64,000 nucleotides of DNA from an uncultured Verrucomicrobiota bacterium (lineage in GTDB: Bacteria > Verrucomicrobiota > Verrucomicrobiia > Limisphaerales > JAEYXS01): the NCBI GenBank assembly GCA_964589735.1, contig CAZPUL010000008.1, positions 1,213-65,212 on the forward strand, read 5' to 3'. Position numbers and translations under genes: made by a program. The notes beneath the pieces were generated by a model. That model made no database searches. It was not told the origin of the DNA and worked only from the letters and a program-made list of their open reading frames with translations. The stretch's first letter is position 1. Each line of letters begins with the position of its first letter. This document shows, piece after piece, positions 1,224-64,000 of the stretch.

Positions 1224-3179
1224 TCAGATCTGCAGGCCCTGCGCTTCGATAAATCCTTGCAGCTGCCGGATACGCGTGGGGTGCCGCATCTTCCTGAGTG
1301 CTTTCGCCTCGATCTGCCGGATGCGTTCGCGCGTCACCTTGAACTGCTTGCCCACTTCCTCCAACGTCCGCGCGTAGCCATCTCCCAGTCCGAAACGCAG
1401 TTCGAGCACCTTGCGCTCCCGCTCCGAGAGGCTGTCCAGCACGTTGCCCATCCGGTCTTTCAAGAGGCTGTAGCTCGTGACATCCGAGGGATTCTGCGCC
1501 GCCTTGTCCTCGATGAAATCACCGAAGCTGGTATCGTCACTGTCACCCACCGGCGATTGCAGTGAGATCGGTTGCTGCGCCATCTTCAAGATGGCCCGCA
1601 CCCGTTCCACCGGCAGATTCATGTCATCCGCCACTTCCTCCGGTGTGGGTTCCCGGCCGAAATCCTGCACCAGTTGCTTCTGCACCCGCATCAGCTTGTT
1701 GATCGTCTCGATCATGTGTACAGGTATGCGGATGGTCCGCGCCTGATCCGCGATAGACCGCGTGATCGCCTGCCGGATCCACCACGTCGCATAAGTGGAG
1801 AACTTGTACCCGCGACGATATTCGAATTTCTCCACCGCCTTCATGAGCCCCATGTTGCCCTCCTGGATAAGGTCGAGGAAGGACAGCCCACGATTCGTAT
1901 ATTTCTTGGCGATGGAAATGACCAGCCGGAGATTGGCCTCCACCATTTCCGTCTTGGCCTGCAAGGCCTTGGCCGACCACTCCAGCAATCCCTGATAGAG
2001 TTTCAGATAGGCATCTGCCGGCATCCGCACAAAATCTTCCAAGGCTTGTATCTTTTTTTCCTCCCCGTGCATGATCAATTGCACCTGTGCCGATTTCCTC
2101 TGTTTTTGCAGCTCGGCGATCAGTTTGCGACTGGCCTGGATCTTGTCATGGATGTTTTCCGCCACCACCGTCATCTCCTCGATGACCTTCTGCTTGTAGA
2201 AGAATTTGCCGAACGTCCGTTGCAGTTTGGTATCCAGTCGGCGGAACTCCTCTTCCAGCCGCGTGAGTTTTTTCTGGCTGGCCTTGCCTTCGGCCGTCCG
2301 CCAGTCGGCGTACGCCTCATCCACCTGCTGGTCCACCGCCCGCACATCCTTCACCAGTTTGCGCAACGCCTTGGTGTGTTTCTCCCGGCCTTCGATCTTT
2401 TTGTCCTGGATGACCCGGTCGAAGCGTTCCTTGGGCGGCTCGCAGATCAGCTTCTCTGCCAGTGCGATGTGCTCTTTCCCCGCAAAACCAAAACTGTGGA
2501 TGATCCGCGTGACTTCCGCCTCCGCATCCTCGATCCGCTTGGATATCTCCACCTCCTGCTCTCGCGTCAGGAGCGCCACCTGCCCCATCTGCTTGAGGTA
2601 CATCCGGACCGGGTCATCGAGGATGTCCATCTTCCCCTTTTCAAACTCCTCCTCAGGTTCCGCCTGCTTCACCTGATCCACCTCCGCCTGATCCACGATG
2701 TCCACCTCCAGACCGCGCAGGCGGCTGCACACCTCGTCCAGATCTTCCCGGGTGACGAGGTTGTCCGGCAAGGCATCACTGATATCGCCATGCGTCAGGT
2801 AGCCCTGCTCCTGCGCCAACCGCAGCAGTTCCTTCAGTTTTTCCGTGAGATCAACTCCCGCCTGGCTGCGGAATGGCTCGGCGATATGCACCGCTCCATC
2901 TCCGTTCAAGTTTGGCAATGGGGCGGCCGCCAGAGCCGCCTCCAGCTTCGCCTGAGACATGTCGTCTGGCGCAGCTTTGCGTGCCGTTGGGACCGTGACC
3001 TTACCCTTGACCGGTACCGACAGCTCCGCCTTCGCGGGCTTGCCATTTCTCGCCTTGGCCTTCAACGGCTTCTTGGACGGCATGGGCTTGGCCTTGGCCT
3101 TGCGCACCGCTTTCGCGGGCTTGCGGGTGGCAGCTTTCTTTTGAACGACCTTTTTCGCTTTGGCTTTGGACTTGGCCAT
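1224..3179 (-). CDS. rpoD: primary RNA polymerase sigma factor RpoD (sigma-70) with a Lys/Ala-rich N-terminal tail
   Basis: Region 2 '[56 protein letters not shown]' and region 4 '[30 protein letters not shown]'. ATG at 3179. Confidence 0.95.
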
Positions 3180-30787: not shown

Positions 30788-32479
30788 TCACAACCGCTCC
30801 ACCGTCACATCCCCTTGGATACCGCCCGCATCAATCGCCAGTTTCTGCCCGGTTTTGTCCTCCAGCCACACTTCAAGTTGACCCGCTCCTCTGGCCAGTT
30901 CAAACACCGTTCGCCCATCCTTTAGCGGCTGCTTCACCGTCTTCCCCTGCCACACCACCGCCATCATGGTGCCAGCCGGAATCGATTCCCGCGCACTGCT
31001 CATCTGATATTTCCCGGCCTGCTCCACCACCACCTGCCAGCCCTTCGGATCTTTGCCCGCCCACGTGAGGTCTTGGTAATAACAGAGATGCACCGGATTT
31101 TCCGCCGCATTGCCGATGTGGATGTCACCTGGCTTGAACCCTCGTGTCCCTTTCACCTCCGCGAACCATTTCTCATACGCCCCCCGCATTTTCCGTAATT
31201 GCTCCGGCTGTTCCTTGGCCAGATTCTTTTCCTCCGCCGGGTCCTCTGCCAGATCATACAGCTCCAGCACCGGCCCATTAGCCGTCACCACATTCTCCTC
31301 TTTGTTGAACGAACCCGGTGAACCCACCAGCTTCCACCGTTGGTTGATCACCGCCATGTTCTGATACGCGTGAGGGGTCAGCCCGCGATGCACCTGGAAG
31401 AACAGATTGCGATCCACCAGTTCCACCGCCTTGCTCCCCGACAGCAACGGCTCCAGATTCATCCCGTCCAGCTTCAGCTCCGCCGGTGCCGTCACACCAC
31501 ACACGCTGAGCAAGGTGGGCAGAACATCCATGTCCGCCGCGATGCGATCAATCGTCCTTGCCCCCTTCCACTTCGCCGGCCATTGGACGAAGAACGGCAC
31601 CCGGATTCCGCCCTCATAGGTCATGCTCTTGCGCCCGCGCAGGTTCATGGTGTAACGCGCCTGTTGCGGCCCGTTATCCGTCATGAAAATCACCAGCGTA
31701 TTGTCGCGCAGTTTCAGCTTCTCCAGATGCGCGATGAGCCGCCCGAAATTCTCGTCCAGATTCTGCACCATCCCATAGACCTTCGCCGTCGTCTCATCCA
31801 GCCCCAGCTCGCGATACGGCTTCACATAATCCTCACTCACCTCCAAGGGCGTGTGCGGGGCATTCAAGGGGATGTAAGCGAAGAATGGTTTCGTCTGGCT
31901 CGCCGTGGCGAATTCCATCGCAGCGTTGAAGAACACATCCGTGCAATAACCCTTCGCCTGGATGCGCTTGCCATTATGCCAAAGGAATGGATCGAAGTAG
32001 CTGTTCGGCTGAACGGGCGGCTGCGTGATGCCCCCGGACTTGTGCATCAACACTTCCTGAAAACCTTGGTCCTGCGGCCGCATCGGATAATTATCCCCCA
32101 GATGCCACTTGCCAAAGATGCCCGTGCGATAGCCACCCTTGCCCAGCAGTTCCGCAACCGTCGTCTCGTCCCCGTGCATCTTCGCACCGCCGCGTGAAGT
32201 ATGGATGACGCCTGTACGATACTGAAACCGCCCCGTCATCAAAGCCGCCCGCGTCGGCGCACACACCGGGCTCACATAGAAGCGCGTCAGCCGGATGCCC
32301 TCGCGACCGAACTTATCCAGATTTGGAGTCTTGATCTTTTCATTTCCATGAAGCCCCAAATCACCGATGCCCTGATCATCGGAAATCACGAGGATCACAT
32401 TCGGGCGGTCAGCTCCAAAAACGCCGAAAGGTAAAGCGACAAAAGCGAACGCCAGCAGGCACAAGCGCAGGAGGTTCAT
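30788..32479 (-). CDS. arylsulfatase
   Basis: 'RPNVILVISDDQGIGDLG' and 'CAPTRAALMTGR' (CxPxR). Confidence 0.9.
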   Translation of the reverse strand: MNLLRLCLLAFAFVALPFGVFGADRPNVILVISDDQGIGDLGLHGNEKIKTPNLDKFGREGIRLTRFYVSPVCAPTRAALMTGRFQYRTGVIHTSRGGAKMHGDETTVAELLGKGGYRTGIFGKWHLGDNYPMRPQDQGFQEVLMHKSGGITQPPVQPNSYFDPFLWHNGKRIQAKGYCTDVFFNAAMEFATASQTKPFFAYIPLNAPHTPLEVSEDYVKPYRELGLDETTAKVYGMVQNLDENFGRLIAHLEKLKLRDNTLVIFMTDNGPQQARYTMNLRGRKSMTYEGGIRVPFFVQWPAKWKGARTIDRIAADMDVLPTLLSVCGVTAPAELKLDGMNLEPLLSGSKAVELVDRNLFFQVHRGLTPHAYQNMAVINQRWKLVGSPGSFNKEENVVTANGPVLELYDLAEDPAEEKNLAKEQPEQLRKMRGAYEKWFAEVKGTRGFKPGDIHIGNAAENPVHLCYYQDLTWAGKDPKGWQVVVEQAGKYQMSSARESIPAGTMMAVVWQGKTVKQPLKDGRTVFELARGAGQLEVWLEDKTGQKLAIDAGGIQGDVTVERL

Positions 32480-32599: not shown

Positions 32600-33916
32600 T
32601 CAGGCCAGATCCAACGGCCCGTTCTGGCTCAGTTCCTTGTTGCCGAAGGTCGCGATGTTATGCCCCACCGCGTGCGCCAGCGCGAGATGCAACCGGTTGT
32701 GCGGCACCTTGTCGAACTTCAGCGACCGGCCCATCTTGAACCCGAACCCGCCACCCGCCATCACGAACGGGATGTCGTTCAGCGTATGGGAATTGCCCTT
32801 GCCCAGCTCGTTCGTCCAGATCACCAGCGTGTTGTCCAGCATCGAACCCGTGCTGCCCGGCTCCGGTGTTTCCGCCAACCGCTTCAACAAGTAGTTCAAT
32901 TCACCCGCGAACCACTTGTTGATCTTGATCAGCTTCTGCTTCGCCACTTCGTCGCTGTCGGGCTCATGGGACAGGCCATGGTGACCGTCCTTGATGTCCA
33001 GCCAGTTCATCCGCGCCTGACCGACGGACTTCGTGTATTGCAACGTCGCCACGCGAGCCATGTCGTTCACGAAGCTGTTGATCAGCAAATCCACCTGCAT
33101 CCGGCTCAAGCGCGGCACATCGTCGTTCTGGCCCGCTGACACCCCACCTGCCAGTGTCGGCGCCGGGGCCAGCACCTTCTGCTTGTCGCTTTCTTTCAGA
33201 TCCTTCTCCATCTGGCGCACCAGTGTCTCATGCTGCTCCAGCATCCGCCGGTCTTCCGCGCTGATCATCTTGCGGATCTTCTTCAAGTCCGTCTGCACAT
33301 CGTCCAAGATGCTCTGCAAGCTCTCCTTGTCCTTCAACTGGCCGTAGAGCTTCTGATACATCTGATACGGGTCCGAGATCGGCGCGACCGGTTGGTTCGG
33401 TCCAGCATAGGACATGCGCGTCCAAGGATCCGCCCGGTCCGTGACACCCACACCAAATTCCAACGAGCCAAAACGTGTCTTGGTCTCTTCCTTGCTCTGG
33501 AAATAATTCTTCAGCTCCTGGTCGATGGAAATGCCGCTCGCCCAACCCGCGGGCGCACCGCCACCACCCTGCACATTGCCCGGGAACAGCTCGATGCCTG
33601 TGAGCAGGCAGCTCATACCGCGCATGTGGCTGTCGCCATCTCCGCGCACCCGGTTGGCCACGCCGTTCAGGATGAGCAGCTTGTCCTTGAACTCCTCCAG
33701 CGGGGACACGATCTCCTTCAGCTTGAACTCGCTGCCGACCTCATCCGGCCAGAACGCGGACGGAATCGTCCCGTTCGGGCTGAACATGATGACCAGACGC
33801 TGGCGCGGCCGGGCCGGAGCGGCCAGACCGAGGCTTGGCAGGCCCATCAGGAACGGCAGGGCGGCGGTCGAGAGCCCTACCCGCTTGATAAATTCACGGC
33901 GATGTATCGTGTTCAT
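32600..33916 (-). CDS. DUF1552 family protein (Tat leader)
   Basis: '[19 protein letters not shown]' and '[21 protein letters not shown]'. ATGA overlap with the upstream DUF1592 gene, the canonical pairing. Confidence 0.8.
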
Positions 33917-36231
33917 GTCTTTTTCTTCGAGCTGACGTTCTTGTCTGGATCGTGCGTGGCGGCCAGCGTGGCAATGTCCACCACCAGCTTCTGGATATTG
34001 TAACCCGACTCGGCAAACGACCGGCGCAAACGGTCCATGTGCTCCGGCCCATAAGCCATCATCGGTTGTTTGACGATCTGGTGGAACAATTGTTCGATAA
34101 AACCGTTCTGGGCCAGATCGCTGCTAACGGCGAATTCCGCCACATCCCGCGCCCCGGCCAAGCGCACCTTCTCGCCTTCGTCGGTGATGTAATCACTCAC
34201 GGCATTTACGGGCTTGCCATTCTCCGTCGTGCGGAAGCGGCCCACCGCATCATACAGCTCCAGGCTGAAGCCCAGCGGATTGATCACCGCATGGCAGGTC
34301 TGGCAGTTCTGCGACTTGGTCAGCTCGGCGACTTTCTCCCGCATGGAGAGATTCGGCGCGAATTTGGTATCCTCGAACGCCACGGCAATCGGAGGCGGCT
34401 TGAGCGCCCGGCCCACGATCTTCCGCGTCAGGAACACCCCGCGATGGATGGGCGAGGTGGACTTCTGATACGAGAACGCCGCCAGCAGATACGGATGCGT
34501 CACCACGCCGGAGCGCTGCGTCGGGTCCAGCTTCACTTTGACGAAATCCTCTTTCGCCTCCGTCTTGACCCCGTAGAATTCCGCCAGCCGCCCGTTCATG
34601 TAGAGGCTGTCGGAGAGCAGCAACTGCCGGTAATCGCCCGTGCTGCCCCACACCACATCATCGAGGAACAGGTTCAGTGATGTCCGCAGATCCGCGATGA
34701 TCTCCGGCGTGAACCCGGGATACAGTTTGCTGTCCTTGGAGACATCTTCCACATGATCCATCTGCAACCAGTGATGCAGGAAATACTGCATCTTGGACTT
34801 TGCCCGCTGGTCCGCCAGCATCCGCTTCGCCTGCTGCGCCACCAATTCCTGCGTCGCCAGCTTGCCTTCCGCTGCGGCCTTCAAAAGTTCCTTGTCCGGC
34901 ATGGAATCCCACAGTCCGTATGACAGCCGTGTCGCCACCGCATAAGGATTCATCTTATCCGTCTCCAAACCCAAGTACAGGAACTGCGGTGACTTCAACG
35001 CCAGCAACACCACCCGCTTCACGGCGGTGTCCAAATCCTTCGCTCCCGCGAAATGCGCGCCCACGTAGGTCTGCTTCTGCTCTTCCGTCAGCGGCTGCCG
35101 GAACGCCGCCTGCACGAATTCCTTGCAGAACGCCTCAACCTTCGCCGCCCGGTCCGCATCACCCGGCTTGCTGCGGGTGAAACGGTCCAGCCGCGCGATC
35201 ACGTAATTCGCCACCTCGATGCCCGCCTGTGTCGTCGCCTCATCCCACGCTTTCGAGATGCCCACGCCTCGCTCATATCCCACGCTGCTGTCATCCGGCG
35301 GGAAGGGCGTGTTGAGCACAAACGTCGAGCGCACCTGCGTTGTCGCCAAGTTCCGCATCGGGACCACTTGCTGTGCGCCATGCGGCGGCACCCATTGCAG
35401 CGAGATGGACGCCGTCTTGTCCTTGAACTTGAACACATCCAGCATCAACGGATAAGTCCGCCCGCCGATGAGCTTGATGGTCGCTTTGTGCTCCGACTGG
35501 CCGGAGGCCACCCACGCATCGATCAGCGGGTTATCCGTATCGTTGACCCACAACCGAGTCCCGTTCGGCGTCTTCAGGATGAACTCATACGTACCCGACT
35601 CCTCCGCAATGAGCGACCCCTGCCAGCGGATGGAGAACTCGTTCGTACCGGTGACCCTTGGATCGGGATTCTCGGTGCCATAGTCAAAATTGATCTGCGT
35701 ATCCACGCGATCGAACATCTTCCGCCCGAAGCCGCGCGAATTGAAATAAGACCCGCGCAATCCCCGTTCCGGCCCGATCTTTCCTTCATCCGTGGAGAAG
35801 CTCTTTAACAAATCCGCCACCGTGTTCACATACTGGCGGTTCGTCAGCCGCACCAGTTCGACCCGGGCCGGATTGTTCCGGTGCTGGGCGATCCGCGAGT
35901 AAAACGCATCATAAATATACTGAGCCACTGCCAGGGAACCCGCCGCATCCAGCATTTCCGGCTTGTCCTCCGGCATCGTGCGGTCAATGACCCGGGCCAG
36001 CTTGTCGATGGACCAGTCCCCATGCAGCGCCTCGTCATACTTGCCGTGCACACCCTCGCCCGCCTTACCATGGCAGCTCGCGCACTGCTTGCGGTAGATT
36101 TCCGCACCCGAGGGCTTCTTTTTATCTGCCGCCTGGAGGCTTGCTTGGTCTGCTAAAATGCATACCAAAGCAAGCATCCAAACGACATTCCCGCGTGACA
36201 ATGAAAACAGTCTGCCGAAAGCATCCGCCAT
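33913..36231 (-). CDS. cytochrome-c / PA14-like / DUF1587-DUF1592-DUF1595-DUF1588-DUF1585 multidomain protein
   Basis: Haem motif 'CASCHG', PA14-like '[33 protein letters not shown]', C-terminal '[13 protein letters not shown]'. The ATG at 36231 gives a signal peptide. In-frame upstream starts at ATG 36318 and GTG 36327 are possible. Confidence 0.8.
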
Positions 36232-36438
36232 GGCTTTCGCACCCCACGCAAAGCCCTTCTTTGGCAAAGAGATGCGCTCTTGGCCTGCTTCCTGTTCCAT
36301 GTTCCGGTCAAACGGCATAAAATTCACTAGGGCTTAGACGACCATATATTGCTTCAGATTCAGTTAATGACAAGTAATTCACCCTTAATTTTCCATCGCC
36401 ATCCCGGCCCCTGATTCGGCATCATCCGGCTCAACGCT

Positions 36439-59832: not shown

Positions 59833-59863
59833 ATAAAAAACGCGGGATGAAACATCCCGCGTT
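59833..59863 (-). terminator. rho-independent terminator of ndk
   Basis: Minus strand: ACGCGGGATG-TTT-CATCCCGCGT followed by TTTTTATTT. Confidence 0.8.
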
Positions 59864-59903
59864 CGCCATAAATCAGAACTCCCCCCTACGGGGAGGATTC
59901 CGC

Positions 59904-60317
59904 TTAGAAAATCTCTTCCTGCTTGAAGAAGCGCTTCACCTCGGCGGCGGCGTTCTCCGGCGTGTCGGAAGCGTGGACGATGTTCTCCATCTTCGTCTTG
60001 CCCAGATCGCCACGGATGGTGCCCTTCGGCGCCTTCGTGGAGTCCGTGGGGCCGACCATATCGCGCACCTTGGCGATCACGTCCCGGCCTTCCAAGATCA
60101 TGGCGACCACGGGGGCGGACTTCATGAACCCGGCGATCTCCGGGAAAAATGGCTTGTCCGCCAGGTGGGAATAGTGGTCCTTCAGCAACGCGTCCGTCAG
60201 TTGCATCATCTTGCAGGCGCGCACTTTCAGCCCGCTCTGCTCGAACCGCCCGATCACTTCCCCGATCAGGTTTCGCTGCACGCAGTCAGGCTTCAACAAA
60301 ATCACAGTCAATTCCAT
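59904..60317 (-). CDS. ndk: nucleoside-diphosphate kinase
   Basis: 'ELTVILLKPDCVQRNLIGEVI' and 'NIVHASD' (active-site His). Confidence 0.93.
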   Translation of the reverse strand: MELTVILLKPDCVQRNLIGEVIGRFEQSGLKVRACKMMQLTDALLKDHYSHLADKPFFPEIAGFMKSAPVVAMILEGRDVIAKVRDMVGPTDSTKAPKGTIRGDLGKTKMENIVHASDTPENAAAEVKRFFKQEEIF

Positions 60318-60418
60318 AGGCGGGAAAAGCTACGTGTTCGTATCTTTGAGAAAAGCAAAATCTTAAGGTCTTTTTGGTCTATTTTTGCCCTTCCCGACCC
60401 CAAAATGGCCTCCGGGAA

Positions 60419-60451
60419 GCAAAAAGGCCGATGGAATCGCTCCATCGGCCT
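60419..60451 (-). terminator. rho-independent terminator of cysK
   Basis: Minus strand: AGGCCGATGGA-GCGAT-TCCATCGGCCT followed by TTTTGC. Confidence 0.75.
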
Positions 60452-60470
60452 CTTAAAAACAGGAGGTGGC

Positions 60471-61466
60471 TTAGCCGCCCACTTCGGCTTTCGCCTCGGC
60501 GGCGAGGGCCGTGCTGAGGTAGCGCTCGCCCGTGGAGCAGGCCACGGTGACGATGGTCTTGCCCTTGTTTTCCGGGCGTTTGGCGATCTCCAAGGCGGCC
60601 CAGACATTGGCACCGGTGGAGATGCCGACGAGGATGCCCTCTTCCTTAGCCAGACGGCGGGCCATGGCAAAGGCGTCGTCATTCGTCACTTGCACGGCTT
60701 CCACGATCTGCGGATTGCCGGCGGAATCCTTCAGATGGAGGTTCTTCGGCACGAAGCCCGCGCCGGTGCCCTGAATCTTATGCGGGCCGGGTTTCACGGA
60801 TTCGCCATTCAGCGTTTGCGTGATGACGGGAGAATCTTTCGGCTCCACGGCGATCGCCTGGAAGGACGGCTTCTTCGGTTTGATGACTTCGCAGCAGCCC
60901 GTGATGGTACCACCCGTGCCGACGGCGGCCACGAGGATATCAATCTTGCCATCCGTGTCTTCCCACAGCTCCACAGCGGTCGTCTTCTTATGGATCTCCG
61001 GATTCGAGGGATTCTCGAACTGCTGCGGGATCCATGCATTCGGCGTTTCCTTGGCCAATTGCTCGGCCTTGTTGATGGCGCCGCGCATGCCTTCCGCGCC
61101 CGGCGTCAGGACAAGCTTCGCACCCAGCATCGCCAGCAACGTGCGGCGCTCCAGTGACATCGTCTCGGGCATGGTGAGGATGATCTTGTAGCCCTTCGCC
61201 GCGGCGACGAACGCCAGCGCGATGCCCGTGTTACCGCTCGTCGGCTCGATGATGACCGTGTCCTTCTTCAGGATGCCCGCCTTCTCGGCGTCCTCGATCA
61301 TCGCCATGCCGATACGGTCCTTCACGCTGCCCAGCGGGTTGAAGAATTCGCACTTGAGCAAAATGCTGGTGCCGGGATCGATGCCTGCGCTGGCAGGAAT
61401 GCGATTCAGGCGGACAAGCGGTGTACGCCCGACCGTCTCCACGATGTTGTTATAGATGCGTCCCAT
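60471..61466 (-). CDS. cysK: cysteine synthase A (O-acetylserine sulfhydrylase)
   Basis: '[11 protein letters not shown]', '[14 protein letters not shown]' and 'GTGGTITG'. Confidence 0.93.
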
Positions 61467-61598
61467 AATCTTGTTTCGAAATCTTTATCAAATTAAGCCG
61501 GAAAAGTATGGGCAAGTTTCCGCGCATTGCCCGTTTGGAGCAAGATTTTTCCCATGGAGCCTTAGATTTGGGATTTTGCGCTGCCCCTGAAAGCAAGT

Positions 61599-62448
61599 GT
61601 CCCCGCCCGGTCTTGCGACCAGACGGGGACAAAATGGGGGGTGGGAGTTCGCCACACTCTCTTTCCCGAGCTGACATTAGGCGCGCTTTGGCTGCCAGCT
61701 TCCCGACGCCATTCTCCACGGCAAGCGGAGTTGTCGGCCTCGTAGCAGGGCCGTCCAGCGTCTTGCGACGGCTGGATTGTTGAGTGAGGCCTCTGGGCCC
61801 GCTTCGGCTGGTGGTTGCGCCACCGGCTGGCGGACCGGGTCAAGACACGCTAGTGACTGCTTTCCGCGTCTTGACCTCTCTGCCCGGGGTCGGCCACCGC
61901 TTTTGGCAGTGCGTTGGCCCCGTGCAACGGGTCTGACCTCTTAACTCTCAGATCGCTTTTCGCTCACATGCCAGCGAACCGTTTTAGCGGCGTCGCCAGC
62001 CTGGTTGGAAGGTTTTCACAGGCCTTGCCCGGACCCAGTGTCCTTCCCGGGGACTGCATCCGCTTGTTCACCTTTCGGTGTTTTTCGCGGCGTGGCTCTT
62101 AACCACGTTTACGCCGTCTCCGTGCTGATGCGCAGTAGCTATCTTACACCCTCTGGGGTGACTGCGATTCATGCGTGCCCGAAACCAGCCCGCATTACTT
62201 TACTCGGTTCGGAACGGTTTCTAATCGCTCCTGGCCGCCGGATGCCTTTTTTCGCGTTTTACTGGAACGGGCGCGACCCCATCCAGTGGCATCGGTGAAT
62301 CCTGCCTGCAGCGTTGACCCTTTCGGGTTTCGTTGAGGGGCCGGACCAATCAGCCTGTCCCGGCCTTTCCCCCGTTACCGGGGATTATCCTGAAGCGGCT
62401 TCCATCGACTCTCGCCGTTTTTCGGCCGCTTCGGTTCTTTCAGAGAAC
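61599..62448 (-). ncRNA. candidate large (~0.85 kb or longer) highly structured ncRNA, class unresolved
   Basis: No credible ORF exists in 1.25 kb. At least 12 perfect or near-perfect hairpins are present. On the minus strand the loops are GNRA: GCAA at 61599-61630 and 61755-61775, GAAA at 62069-62080 and 62317-62328, GUAA at 62370-62383. Five G·U pairs on the minus strand (helices 61599-61630, 61838-76, 61970-62000) would be A·C mismatches on the plus strand, against one case of the opposite kind (61807-27). Confidence 0.5.
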
Positions 62449-62450
62449 GC

Positions 62451-62721
62451 ATTCACAATAACATATTTCCCCGAACTGACTACGAATTCTTATTCACAAC
62501 TTGTGCACTTCTAATGATAAATCGTGATTTCAAAAAACCTCGTTTTCCTGAATAAAAACTAACATTCCCAGCCAGTGATCAAAGTTATTCACCGCGAAAT
62601 CATGATCAAAAACACCTCTGGTGAATAACTTCAGAACATCAATTCACAAAAATGTAGCAATTCTTTCTTCAAGATTTGAATTTCCACCTCGGAACAAACT
62701 ATCGCCTCAAAGAAAACACCG
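62451..62721 (-). promoter_or_regulatory. AT-rich segment with repeated ATTCAC boxes; putative promoter/operator region for the downstream (minus-strand) structured RNA
   Basis: ATTCAC at 62451, 62493, 62587 and 62642, plus an inverted GTGAAT at 62621. An 11-bp inverted repeat AGTTATTCACC...GGTGAATAACT spans 62583-62631. There is a sharp GC drop relative to the flanks. Confidence 0.35.
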
Positions 62722-64000
62722 TTATTTCTTGGGCTTTATTGAATATTTGTGGGCTATTTCGAAGGATTCCCCTGACTCTTTCCCAGTCGTTTTTAGATAC
62801 TGGATTGTTGACTCATCCTGCGTGACCACGACGCGAATAATCCCCGAACTCGGCAACACCACCCCACTCTTGTAACCGTATTCTTCCGCGCTTCGGACGG
62901 TTCCGCGCGGATGCCCCGGTTGCGGCACTTCTTGGTAGATGACTCCGTCCAGTTCCTGTTTCACAAACAGATGGTCATGTCCGTGAAACACCACATTCAC
63001 GCGATGCTTCACCAGCAACTGATGGATGGGCATGGCCCAGCATGGACGCTTGCTCGCGAATTCACCAGCACCGCTCAAACCTTGCCCGCCCCACTCAAAA
63101 TACTTCGCCGCCTCCACTCCACCGCGTGCTTCCTTGCTCGTCCCGCCCGCCAGATGATGCAGGAACACAAACCGATAATTCGCCTGGCTCGTCTCCAGTG
63201 TTTTCTTCAACCACTCATACTGCACCCCGCCCAGAGTGCGGTTCCAATTATCTTCACCACGTGTCTTGCTGCGCGTATACCAGAACGGATCCAGCACGAT
63301 GAACTGGGCATCTCCCCATGTCCAAGCGTAGTAGTCCTCCAACAAACCGGCTTGCGGATCCGGCGTTGTATTTCCAGTGTAAAATTCATTGGGCAACGGA
63401 TTCGGGAAGTAGCGTTTGCGCATCTGATTGGACCACACTGCGGCATTGTCCGTCGTGCCATCGAGAAACCATCCCGCCTCGCCATCATGATTCCCCAGCA
63501 CTAAGTATACGGGCGCTTGCTGCCCAATGATCCCGAAGTAATACCGCTGCGCCAGATACTGTTTCGCTGCGTCTTTGTAGTTCGTGTACTTGTCCGTCAT
63601 GAACGTGTCACCGAGGTCGATGTGGAAATCCGTTCCCGACAGAATTGCATTCGTGAGGCTGCGCTTATAGATCTCCGGCTCCGTCCCAAAATCCAGATGC
63701 GGGTCGGCCTGCACCGTGAAAGTGAACGTGCTCCCCGATGGACGCGCTGTCATGAACGTCCCTCCCGCACTGCTTTCAAAACCCTCTTTCCCCATCGCTC
63801 GCGAACGAAACTGAAAATGATAACGCGTGTTTGCCTGCAATCCCTCGAGCAGCAACTCCACCGGCTCCCCCTTCGCGAACTTCCGCTTCGTCGTTTCCTT
63901 CGCATACACGCCCGGCTTTGTTCCATAGGCTACATACCCCTCACGGTCCTCATAGGTAAGCACGCTCAAGGTGATGGAACTCTTCGTTGGCCGCCCCAAG
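62722..64000 (-). CDS. metallophosphoesterase (PhoD / purple-acid-phosphatase-like); N-terminus probably beyond the window edge
   Basis: 'FHIDLGDTF', 'LVLGNHDGE' and 'VVFHGHDHLF'. The ORF is open to the window end (its first codon in the track is TTG at the edge). Confidence 0.8.
   Translation of the reverse strand, partial: LGRPTKSSITLSVLTYEDREGYVAYGTKPGVYAKETTKRKFAKGEPVELLLEGLQANTRYHFQFRSRAMGKEGFESSAGGTFMTARPSGSTFTFTVQADPHLDFGTEPEIYKRSLTNAILSGTDFHIDLGDTFMTDKYTNYKDAAKQYLAQRYYFGIIGQQAPVYLVLGNHDGEAGWFLDGTTDNAAVWSNQMRKRYFPNPLPNEFYTGNTTPDPQAGLLEDYYAWTWGDAQFIVLDPFWYTRSKTRGEDNWNRTLGGVQYEWLKKTLETSQANYRFVFLHHLAGGTSKEARGGVEAAKYFEWGGQGLSGAGEFASKRPCWAMPIHQLLVKHRVNVVFHGHDHLFVKQELDGVIYQEVPQPGHPRGTVRSAEEYGYKSGVVLPSSGIIRVVVTQDESTIQYLKTTGKESGESFEIAHKYSIKPKK

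Follow-up and report, generated by a model that had tools for sequence, protein, structure and literature searches.

A full-length MISL RNA gene on a Verrucomicrobiota contig, with a pseudoknotted fold and a cluster of DnaA-box-like sequences next to its putative promoter

The stretch of DNA analyzed here, referred to below as the window, comprises 64,000 nucleotides (nt) of contig CAZPUL010000008.1 from an uncultured Verrucomicrobiota bacterium. An original prediction, made from its letters alone, had placed a large structured RNA on the minus strand, in the gap between a cysK-like gene and a metallophosphoesterase gene. It is practically certain that this region encodes a MISL RNA, the family listed as RF03079 in Rfam. 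The explanation that best fits the results as a whole, and which we hold with high confidence, is that of a MISL gene giving a stand-alone non-coding RNA (ncRNA) of about 860 nt, which would be controlled by DnaA and would act in trans. The locus is a typical representative of an Rfam family that is already known but functionally orphan, and the class itself is not new. What we did not find described in the literature, and regard as leads, are the longer gene model, the pseudoknots and most of all the association with DnaA boxes.

Scanning the whole window against Rfam 15 at curated thresholds returned exactly one match, to RF03079 (MISL RNA), which runs from 62390 to 61644 on the minus strand and scores 542.4 bits against a gathering score of 274.6 (E-value 7e-164). 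The match covers model positions 1-751 of 751 without truncation, and by score the copy belongs to the family; this core (61644-62390, minus strand) is also supported by the covariation described below. Rfam types RF03079 as a gene of the small RNA (sRNA) kind and not as a cis-regulatory element. In a permissive scan of 61300-62800 (E-values up to 10), only four sub-threshold chance matches appeared besides MISL, and the models of RNase P, group II intron, GOLLD, ROOL, OLE, HEARO, raiA and transfer-messenger RNA (tmRNA) matched neither strand. Over the whole window, GOLLD, ROOL, OLE, HEARO, raiA, group II intron and tmRNA gave nothing at the gathering threshold, and ARAGORN found neither tRNA nor tmRNA.

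The original prediction had hesitated between a highly divergent, expanded RNase P RNA (rnpB) and an undescribed class of large structured RNA, and neither identity withstood these scans. Local strings resembling conserved region (CR)-I, P13 and CR-III had been pointed out in favor of rnpB, and MISL is large, rich in GNRA loops and pseudoknotted like RNase P RNA. The invariant CR-I and CR-V strings are, however, absent, as that prediction had itself remarked, at the permissive cut-off neither strand of 61300-62800 is matched by an RNase P model or by that of another ribozyme, and the whole region is explained by another family. Verrucomicrobiota carry ordinary type-A RNase P RNAs, and the chance that the region is an rnpB is negligible. 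An undescribed class is just as improbable: no function-related literature on MISL was found, which might speak for it, but a curated family is matched over its full length, in the window and in all 18 of the related loci that were sampled. The prediction had named a clean full-length Rfam match to RNase P as the result that would make the RNA a known class. A match of that quality was obtained and the family is a known one, but it is MISL and not RNase P.

The RNA lies between two minus-strand genes, the cysK-like open reading frame (ORF) at 60471-61466 (Pfam PALP, 254 bits) and the metallophosphoesterase ORF at 62722-63999 (Pfam Metallophos), and the gap between them contains short ORFs only. 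Read as minus strand, 61590-62455 folds with an energy of -380.3 kcal/mol (z = -4.83, with none of 20 dinucleotide shuffles as good), and taken together with the lack of longer ORFs, the RF03079 match and the covariation, this bears out the predicted large structured ncRNA in an ORF-free, hairpin-dense region. As the plus strand of the same segment also folds well (z = -4.06), thermodynamics alone leaves the strand of the RNA unsettled. The minus strand, which had also been the predicted one, is assigned because the full-length Rfam match lies on it and because more of the model pairs are canonical in that reading (152 of 165, 12 of them G.U) than in the plus reading (145). The alternative of an array of repetitive extragenic palindromic (REP) copies is ruled out within the 64-kb window, where the region has no further copies and only chance matches of 13-14 nt occur.

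Homologues were retrieved by searching one genome per species of GTDB for an exact 22-base conserved block, CTGAGAGNTAAGAGGNNAGACCCGT. This search gave at least 120 loci, and the counts of loci given below refer to those listed. With the window RNA as query, nhmmer found a homologue in every one of these at least 120 loci; about 100 of 120 matches run end to end over 741-800 nt, while the remaining ones are cut by a contig end or cover part of the query. One copy, in Verrucomicrobia bacterium UBA6614 (L111:4045-4937), measures 893 nt, with insertions of about 140 nt in total at several places, and despite these it matches the full Rfam model with 493 bits. The nhmmer scores split the homologues into two groups, clade A, which is near the window copy and Limisphaerales-like, and clade B, which consists of Opitutales; the 18 loci that match RF03079 over its full length (367-603 bits) were sampled from both.

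In taxonomic terms, nearly all of the loci listed come from metagenome-assembled genomes (MAGs) of Verrucomicrobiota, as expected of a MISL RNA, with carriers among Opitutaceae, Lacunisphaera, Nibricoccus and Opitutus, among Limisphaerales and Pedosphaera, and among Verrucomicrobiales. Six MISL contigs (L025, L032, L033, L059, L064 and L066) were assigned to bins that carry the names Dongiaceae, Stutzerimonas (an 858-bp scaffold), Saccharimonadales or Bifidobacteriaceae; mis-binning or contamination is likely here, since these MISL copies fall within Verrucomicrobiota clades. One Opitutales MAG holds identical copies on two contigs (L054 and L115), which may be a true duplicate or one of assembly, and all other genomes of the sample have one locus each. 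Carriage by phages or plasmids was considered and rejected: blastn found no MISL in 50,697 phage records and 72,556 plasmids, and a scan of IMG/VR gave just three contigs classed as viral (L121-L123), 2.2-2.4 kb in length. In these three, MISL is cut at the contig end and nothing outside it resembles the genome loci, and they are probably mis-classified chromosomal fragments.

For the analysis of structure, the window copy was aligned with 98 distinct full-length copies (MAFFT L-INS-i; alignment A1) and the Rfam structure was projected onto the result. Of the 177 pairs in the RF03079 model, 165 are present in the window, among them the 152 canonical ones. Across the 99 sequences of A1, 85.0% of cells are paired, compared with a mean of 71.3% in shuffled alignments and 36-42% when the partners are slid, and both partners have changed in 126 of 165 pairs, i.e. 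the consensus helices covary. The covariation score is 0.391, against 0.159 for shuffled and 0.06-0.09 for slid partners, and none of 500 shuffles reached the observed value in any covariation measure. Helices 8, 12, 13, 14 and 17 look weak in these counts because their variable hairpins are misaligned between clades by MAFFT. Many of the unpaired nucleotides of MISL are invariant. The covariation establishes a fold of about 30 helices that are joined by at least three internal pseudoknots.

Most helices that had been read from the single sequence are part of this fold, and they are conserved and covarying in relatives. Eight local hairpins and the long-range GAUGCC/GGCAUC pairing all correspond to covarying Rfam consensus helices, and the multiple GNRA loops foreseen on the minus strand number five in the window (GUAA, GAAA, GAAA and GCAA, as read off the projected structure, and the GCAA at the terminator site). 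The outer helix GCUGGCGA/UCGCUGGC around the GCCG/CGGU hairpin (61970-62000, minus strand) is absent from the nested structure of Rfam, yet it covaries, with 89.3% of its cells paired over five pairs, four of which changed on both sides with up to six pair types. The proposed GCGAUU/AAUCGC pairing, in contrast, did not hold: no compensatory change was seen in it, and it is incompatible with a helix that does covary.

Pseudoknots beyond the Rfam model were sought by a mutual-information scan, followed by counts for each helix on A1. The first (PK-c) pairs a hairpin loop, UCGCG (62276-62272), with CGCGA (62256-62252) in the 3' flank of the same hairpin (62252-62276, minus strand), and its pair types are CG95, GC89/AU8, CG54/UA40 and GC71/AU19. 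The second (PK-d; 61951-62143, minus strand) joins an internal loop, GAUAGCU (62143-62137), to AGCGAUC (61957-61951), a strand some 190 nt downstream. The family consensus of this pairing is GGUUGC x GCAACC; the window has one A.G mismatch, and 99.5% of cells are paired, with UA75/CG21 at one pair. In the third (PK-e; 61853-61967, minus strand), the single strand GUGA (61967-61964) is joined to UCAC (61856-61853) in the loop of the 12-bp hairpin. Its family form is CUGCAA x UUGCAG, of 6 bp in the majority of homologues but only 4 bp in the window; it is 97.1% paired, and all six pairs change on both sides. When these three pseudoknots and the helix extension were evaluated jointly on A1, 95.9% of cells were paired against 29-45% with slid partners, none of 500 shuffles was as high, and both sides had changed in 17 of 21 pairs.

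A fourth pairing (PK-g), between the loop UGA(A/U) of the 5' hairpin and (U/A)UCA at model positions 92-95, is probable; it would dock this loop onto a UCA segment that is invariant. In the window, it would bring together the loop UGAA (62442-62439) and UUCA (62299-62296). Three of its pairs are complementary in 98 of 98 sequences, the core is 90% paired, and the fourth pair swaps from A-U to U-A between clades (UA45/AU42). A 644:679 pair from the mutual-information scan was dropped, being isolated and split by clade only.

The conserved RNA extends past the Rfam model at both ends. On the 5' side it begins about 60 nt before the model start, with a hairpin motif GUUC-(A/C)UUGA(A/U)A-GAAC that recurs in practically every locus at a distance of 56-61 nt before GGAUAAU. 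The window version, the hairpin GUUC-UCUGAAA-GAAC (62434-62448, minus strand), lies outside the model, and the stem is 98% paired. Between it and the model is a variable hairpin (62393-62431, minus strand) that closes just before GGAUAAU. Its AAGCGGC/GCCGCUU stem had been listed in the original prediction and proves to be conserved and covarying, the closing stem being 90-96% canonical in 98 sequences with 4-6 pair types per pair. On the 3' side, a conserved tail, CACCCCCCAUUUUG (61630-61643, minus strand), stands between the end of the model and the terminator and appears as CAYCCCC(C)-AUUUUG in displayed loci of both clades. It leads into an intrinsic terminator at 61588-61631 (minus strand), a 15-bp GC-rich stem with a GCAA loop followed by CUUGCUUUCA, which was the sole terminator-like site that the scan found in 61300-62900 and which accounts for the 14-bp helix predicted at 61599-61630. 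Homologues have a GC-rich stem of 12-15 bp at this place, in most cases capped by GCAA, and a U-rich tract behind it; in 85 of 112 loci, the first 8 nt past the stem include at least three T. Covariation is seen in the stem, whose pairs are 97-100% canonical with up to four pair types.

Conserved elements are also found upstream of the GUUC motif. In clade A, the anchored consensus of 25 loci contains TGnTAnnnT at a distance of about 8 nt and TTGTC about 17 nt further upstream, while in clade B GTGACTTT, about 17 nt and then CAnnnT are found just upstream of the GUUC hairpin. In the window, cross-species conservation points to an extended -10-like element, TGTTATTGT, at 62455-62463 (minus strand). 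We infer from these elements that transcription starts at about 62449 ± 3 and ends at about 61590, giving an RNA of about 860 nt. A sigma-70-type promoter with an extended -10 would start MISL at this position, and transcription would then cross the conserved pair of 5' hairpins and the 747-nt Rfam core and end at the intrinsic terminator, so that the cysK-like gene downstream would be a separate unit. That MISL is an independent transcript with these ends appears quite probable.

The position of MISL on the cysK strand, 130 nt upstream of that gene, makes it necessary to consider a cis-acting 5' leader, i.e. a riboswitch or an attenuator of the cysK-like gene. In support of such a leader, cysK is found downstream of MISL in eight related loci as well, and the window CysK has 86% identity with the protein of L003, a Verrucomicrobia MAG in which MISL and cysK are arranged in the same way. 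The conserved intrinsic terminator, however, stands between MISL and cysK, the downstream gene in Opitutales is typA or another gene, often on the opposite strand, a length of about 860 nt with pseudoknots far exceeds that of known leaders, and the Rfam type is that of a gene. The variable neighbors and the terminator argue against a leader, in agreement with the original prediction, which had considered a simple 5' leader unsuitable, and we regard a cysK leader as very improbable. The conserved promoter-like and terminator elements and the variable neighbors support the view that MISL would be a stand-alone gene.

Our statements on gene context were restricted to ORF clusters confirmed by Pfam, as high-GC shadow ORFs confound automatic clustering. 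In clade A, an M23 peptidase and a lipoprotein-like ORF are found divergently upstream of MISL, and CysK and Rho downstream; in Opitutales, the HrpB helicase is divergently upstream and TypA/BipA downstream. The gene of this HrpB-type DEAH RNA helicase lies about 200 nt upstream in some 30 Opitutales loci (e.g., L053, L094, L007 and L027), and in about 27 typA/bipA comes after MISL with the same orientation. The helicase might be a partner of MISL, or its proximity could be inherited synteny. Within the window, a 436-aa ORF at 59847-61157 on the plus strand that runs antisense to ndk and cysK is not a gene but a high-GC shadow ORF. Three further genes, all on the minus strand, fit a Verrucomicrobiota chromosome: an rpoD-like sigma-70 gene (1224-3179, 651 aa), a sulfatase gene (30788-32479), and a gene for a PSD/PSCyt (DUF1592/DUF1588) cytochrome-domain protein (33913-36327) of the type found in the Planctomycetes-Verrucomicrobia-Chlamydiae (PVC) group.

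The most suggestive feature of the locus lies upstream of the putative promoter, where DnaA-box-like 9-mers are clustered. Boxes were scanned for with at most one mismatch to TTATNCACA in the 100 loci with enough upstream sequence, in the zone from -260 to -100 upstream of MISL. Their density in this zone is 15.3 per kb, as opposed to 0.18 per kb in 615 kb of other locus sequence, which amounts to an enrichment of about 87-fold. At least one box is present in 95 of 100 loci and at least two in 82, and none of 200 motif permutations came near the observed count (247, against a mean of 11). As the zone has 54% GC across loci, base composition fails to explain the boxes. Their layout is fixed in position within each clade, namely GGTGAAnAA-n2/3-TGTGnATAA in clade A and TTATTCACCG-n8-GGTGAAnAA-TTGnGnnGAA in clade B. 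Clusters of two to four such 9-mers are seen just upstream of the promoter in two Verrucomicrobiota orders, whatever the neighboring protein genes are.

In the window, three boxes at 62490-62628 fall within the spacer 62453-62721, which has only 36% GC. The most distal is a 9-mer TTATTCACC with one mismatch to TTATNCACA (62620-62628, minus strand), and the same 9-mer, with the same single mismatch, recurs on the plus strand at 62585-62593, where the RNA strand reads GGUGAAUAA. The third, TTATTCACA (62490-62498, plus strand; RNA strand TGTGAATAA), occupies the conserved promoter-proximal position and is the only DnaA box in all 64 kb that matches exactly. Among the 9-mers of the upstream zone, GGTGAATAA ranks second in frequency and was found in 59 of 100 loci. 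Conserved boxes that adjoin the inferred promoter in a fixed register, with an enrichment of this order and in nearly all loci, have the sequence character of a DnaA-regulated promoter, and we lean towards the view that DnaA binds them and regulates the MISL promoter.

Rather than being DnaA sites, the 9-mers might serve a different transcription factor as its operator, or they might be part of the divergent gene upstream. The form seen most often, GTTATTCACC, has another final base than TTATCCACA, the two Opitutales boxes form an inverted repeat (TTATTCACCG-n8-CGGTGAAnAA), as dimeric regulators prefer, and the upstream gene is divergent in many loci. On the other hand, exact matches to TTATNCACA are enriched about 900-fold (49 in the zone and 2 elsewhere), and clade A has perfect boxes of the TGTGGATAA type in head-to-tail arrays about 12 bp apart, as is typical of DnaA arrays. 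The distance of the boxes to the MISL promoter is, moreover, kept though the upstream gene differs, and in the window the upstream gene is co-directional. Such an operator is therefore rated as unlikely, although it deserves more weight than the other alternatives considered here.

The reading of MISL as a DnaA-controlled, stand-alone RNA gene has some weaknesses that need to be considered when referring to the results above. Retrieval by an exact 22-base block biases the sample of homologues towards conserved members. As a consensus sigma-70 promoter scan of 61300-62900 found no promoter, the promoter and start site are drawn from cross-species conservation, and the terminator tail in the window (CUUGCUUUCA) is poor in U. 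The commonest box, TTATTCACC, is one mismatch off the canonical sequence and could be recognized by another DNA-binding protein, and the boxes were scored against the canonical TTATNCACA, which may not be the consensus of the oriC or dnaA promoter of this phylum. The covariation of PK-g amounts to essentially one compensatory event between clades, and this is why that pairing was rated only as probable. Finally, we found no literature on MISL function, and none that links DnaA boxes to MISL or to any Verrucomicrobial RNA.

Clustered DnaA boxes also raise the question of whether the cluster and its AT-rich spacer are the chromosomal oriC, with MISL as an origin-proximal transcript involved in opening or priming, or as a CcnA-like regulator. 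Two to four clustered boxes in 82% of loci and the low GC content of the window spacer are consistent with an origin, the strongly negative plus-strand skew of the window, whose cumulative value is still falling at the right end, would allow an origin further right, and CcnA, an ncRNA located at the origin (PMC8959179), is a loose precedent. Of 49 loci, however, 40 show no change of sign in GC skew from one side of MISL to the other and 3 show an origin-type flip, flanks of 1.5-4 kb making this a coarse test, and in the window the skew stays negative (-0.18) past the boxes with no flip at 62.5 kb. Neither dnaA, dnaN nor other replication genes are among the recurrent MISL neighbors, the boxes stay in one register with the promoter, an arrangement seen in regulated promoters, and with 54% GC in the zone of other loci there is no general AT-rich unwinding element. 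On the GC skew, coarse as the short flanks make it, the box cluster was rejected as oriC, and we consider an origin here to be improbable. Along the window, the plus-strand skew lies between -0.13 and -0.28 over the first 54 kb or so, is close to zero from 54 to 62 kb and amounts to -0.18 from 62 to 64 kb. This negative skew, together with the location of most long ORFs on the minus strand, makes that strand look like the leading one, with MISL co-directional with replication; the skew in most Opitutales loci suggests the opposite orientation of MISL to replication.

Returning to MISL as a DnaA-controlled RNA gene, its product would act in trans, and control by DnaA would tie the level of the RNA to the state of replication initiation. 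The RNA would serve as a protein-binding scaffold or as a catalytic RNA; we infer that a scaffold has about an even chance, a ribozyme about half of that, and any other role the same as a ribozyme. A further, tentative proposal is that MISL, through a box cluster kept in at least two orders of Verrucomicrobiota, belongs to the DnaA regulon and that the RNA, or the boxes together with transcription, would feed into replication or cell-cycle control, be it as a protein-binding scaffold, as a ribozyme or as a transcription-dependent, datA/DARS-like locus that handles DnaA. If this were true, an orphan large bacterial RNA would for the first time have a functional handle, and we know of no large structured RNA previously placed under the control of DnaA.

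Among bacterial RNAs of such size, MISL is one of few without a known function. Its detection here is a re-discovery of an Rfam class, and annotation pipelines that run Rfam would label the region. MISL is reportedly among the 224 motifs of Weinberg et al. (2017, Nucleic Acids Research 45:10811). The main text of that paper (PMC5737381) does not mention it, and the only other mention that we found is in the Ribonanza preprint, where a MISL RNA window was used for chemical mapping (in-vitro selective 2'-hydroxyl acylation analyzed by primer extension, SHAPE). What the present analysis may contribute is threefold. The extended gene boundaries, i.e. about 60 nt at the 5' end and the tail and terminator at the 3' end, are needed for transcribing, probing and imaging MISL; the covariation-supported pseudoknots imply a compact fold rather than a string of hairpins; and the candidate DnaA-box cluster at the promoter gives a concrete and cheaply testable hypothesis for function.

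When compared with known systems, the window copy shares sequence and nested structure with the RF03079 model over its full length and, like it, is typed as an independent RNA gene. The model lacks the 5' extension of about 60 nt, the 3' tail and terminator, three to four pseudoknots, the helix extension and the upstream DnaA boxes. ROOL, GOLLD, OLE, HEARO and raiA resemble MISL in their length of several hundred nt, in their many helices, in GNRA loops, pseudoknots and unpaired nucleotides that are invariant, and in having been found by comparative genomics with no function known at discovery; they show no model similarity to MISL even at E-values up to 10. According to PMC5737381, ROOL and GOLLD are often near tRNAs and in prophages. 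MISL, in contrast to these two, is absent from phage and plasmid collections and sits among housekeeping chromosomal genes in Verrucomicrobiota. RNase P RNA (RF00010/RF00011) is, like MISL, large and pseudoknotted, has a core that is conserved and is probably encoded once per genome, but there is no covariance-model match between them, and MISL, roughly twice the size, is without the CR-I/CR-V signature.

CcnA of Caulobacter crescentus is said to be small and to base-pair with the ctrA and gcrA mRNAs. It is an ncRNA tied to replication and cell-cycle circuitry, as MISL would be in the reading proposed here, and according to PMC8959179 it is located at the origin. Unlike CcnA, MISL is about 860 nt long and is not found at a skew switch, and the two RNAs have no sequence in common. 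The closest parallel on the DNA side is given by DnaA-box clusters and DnaA-regulated promoters outside the origin, such as datA and DARS in E. coli and the DnaA-box clusters of B. subtilis. These have in common with the putative DnaA boxes of MISL that two to four DnaA boxes lie off the skew switch, adjacent to a promoter and in a fixed register. To our knowledge, the clusters known so far flank protein-coding genes or act as DNA elements, whereas the gene linked to the MISL boxes is that of a structured RNA of about 860 nt.

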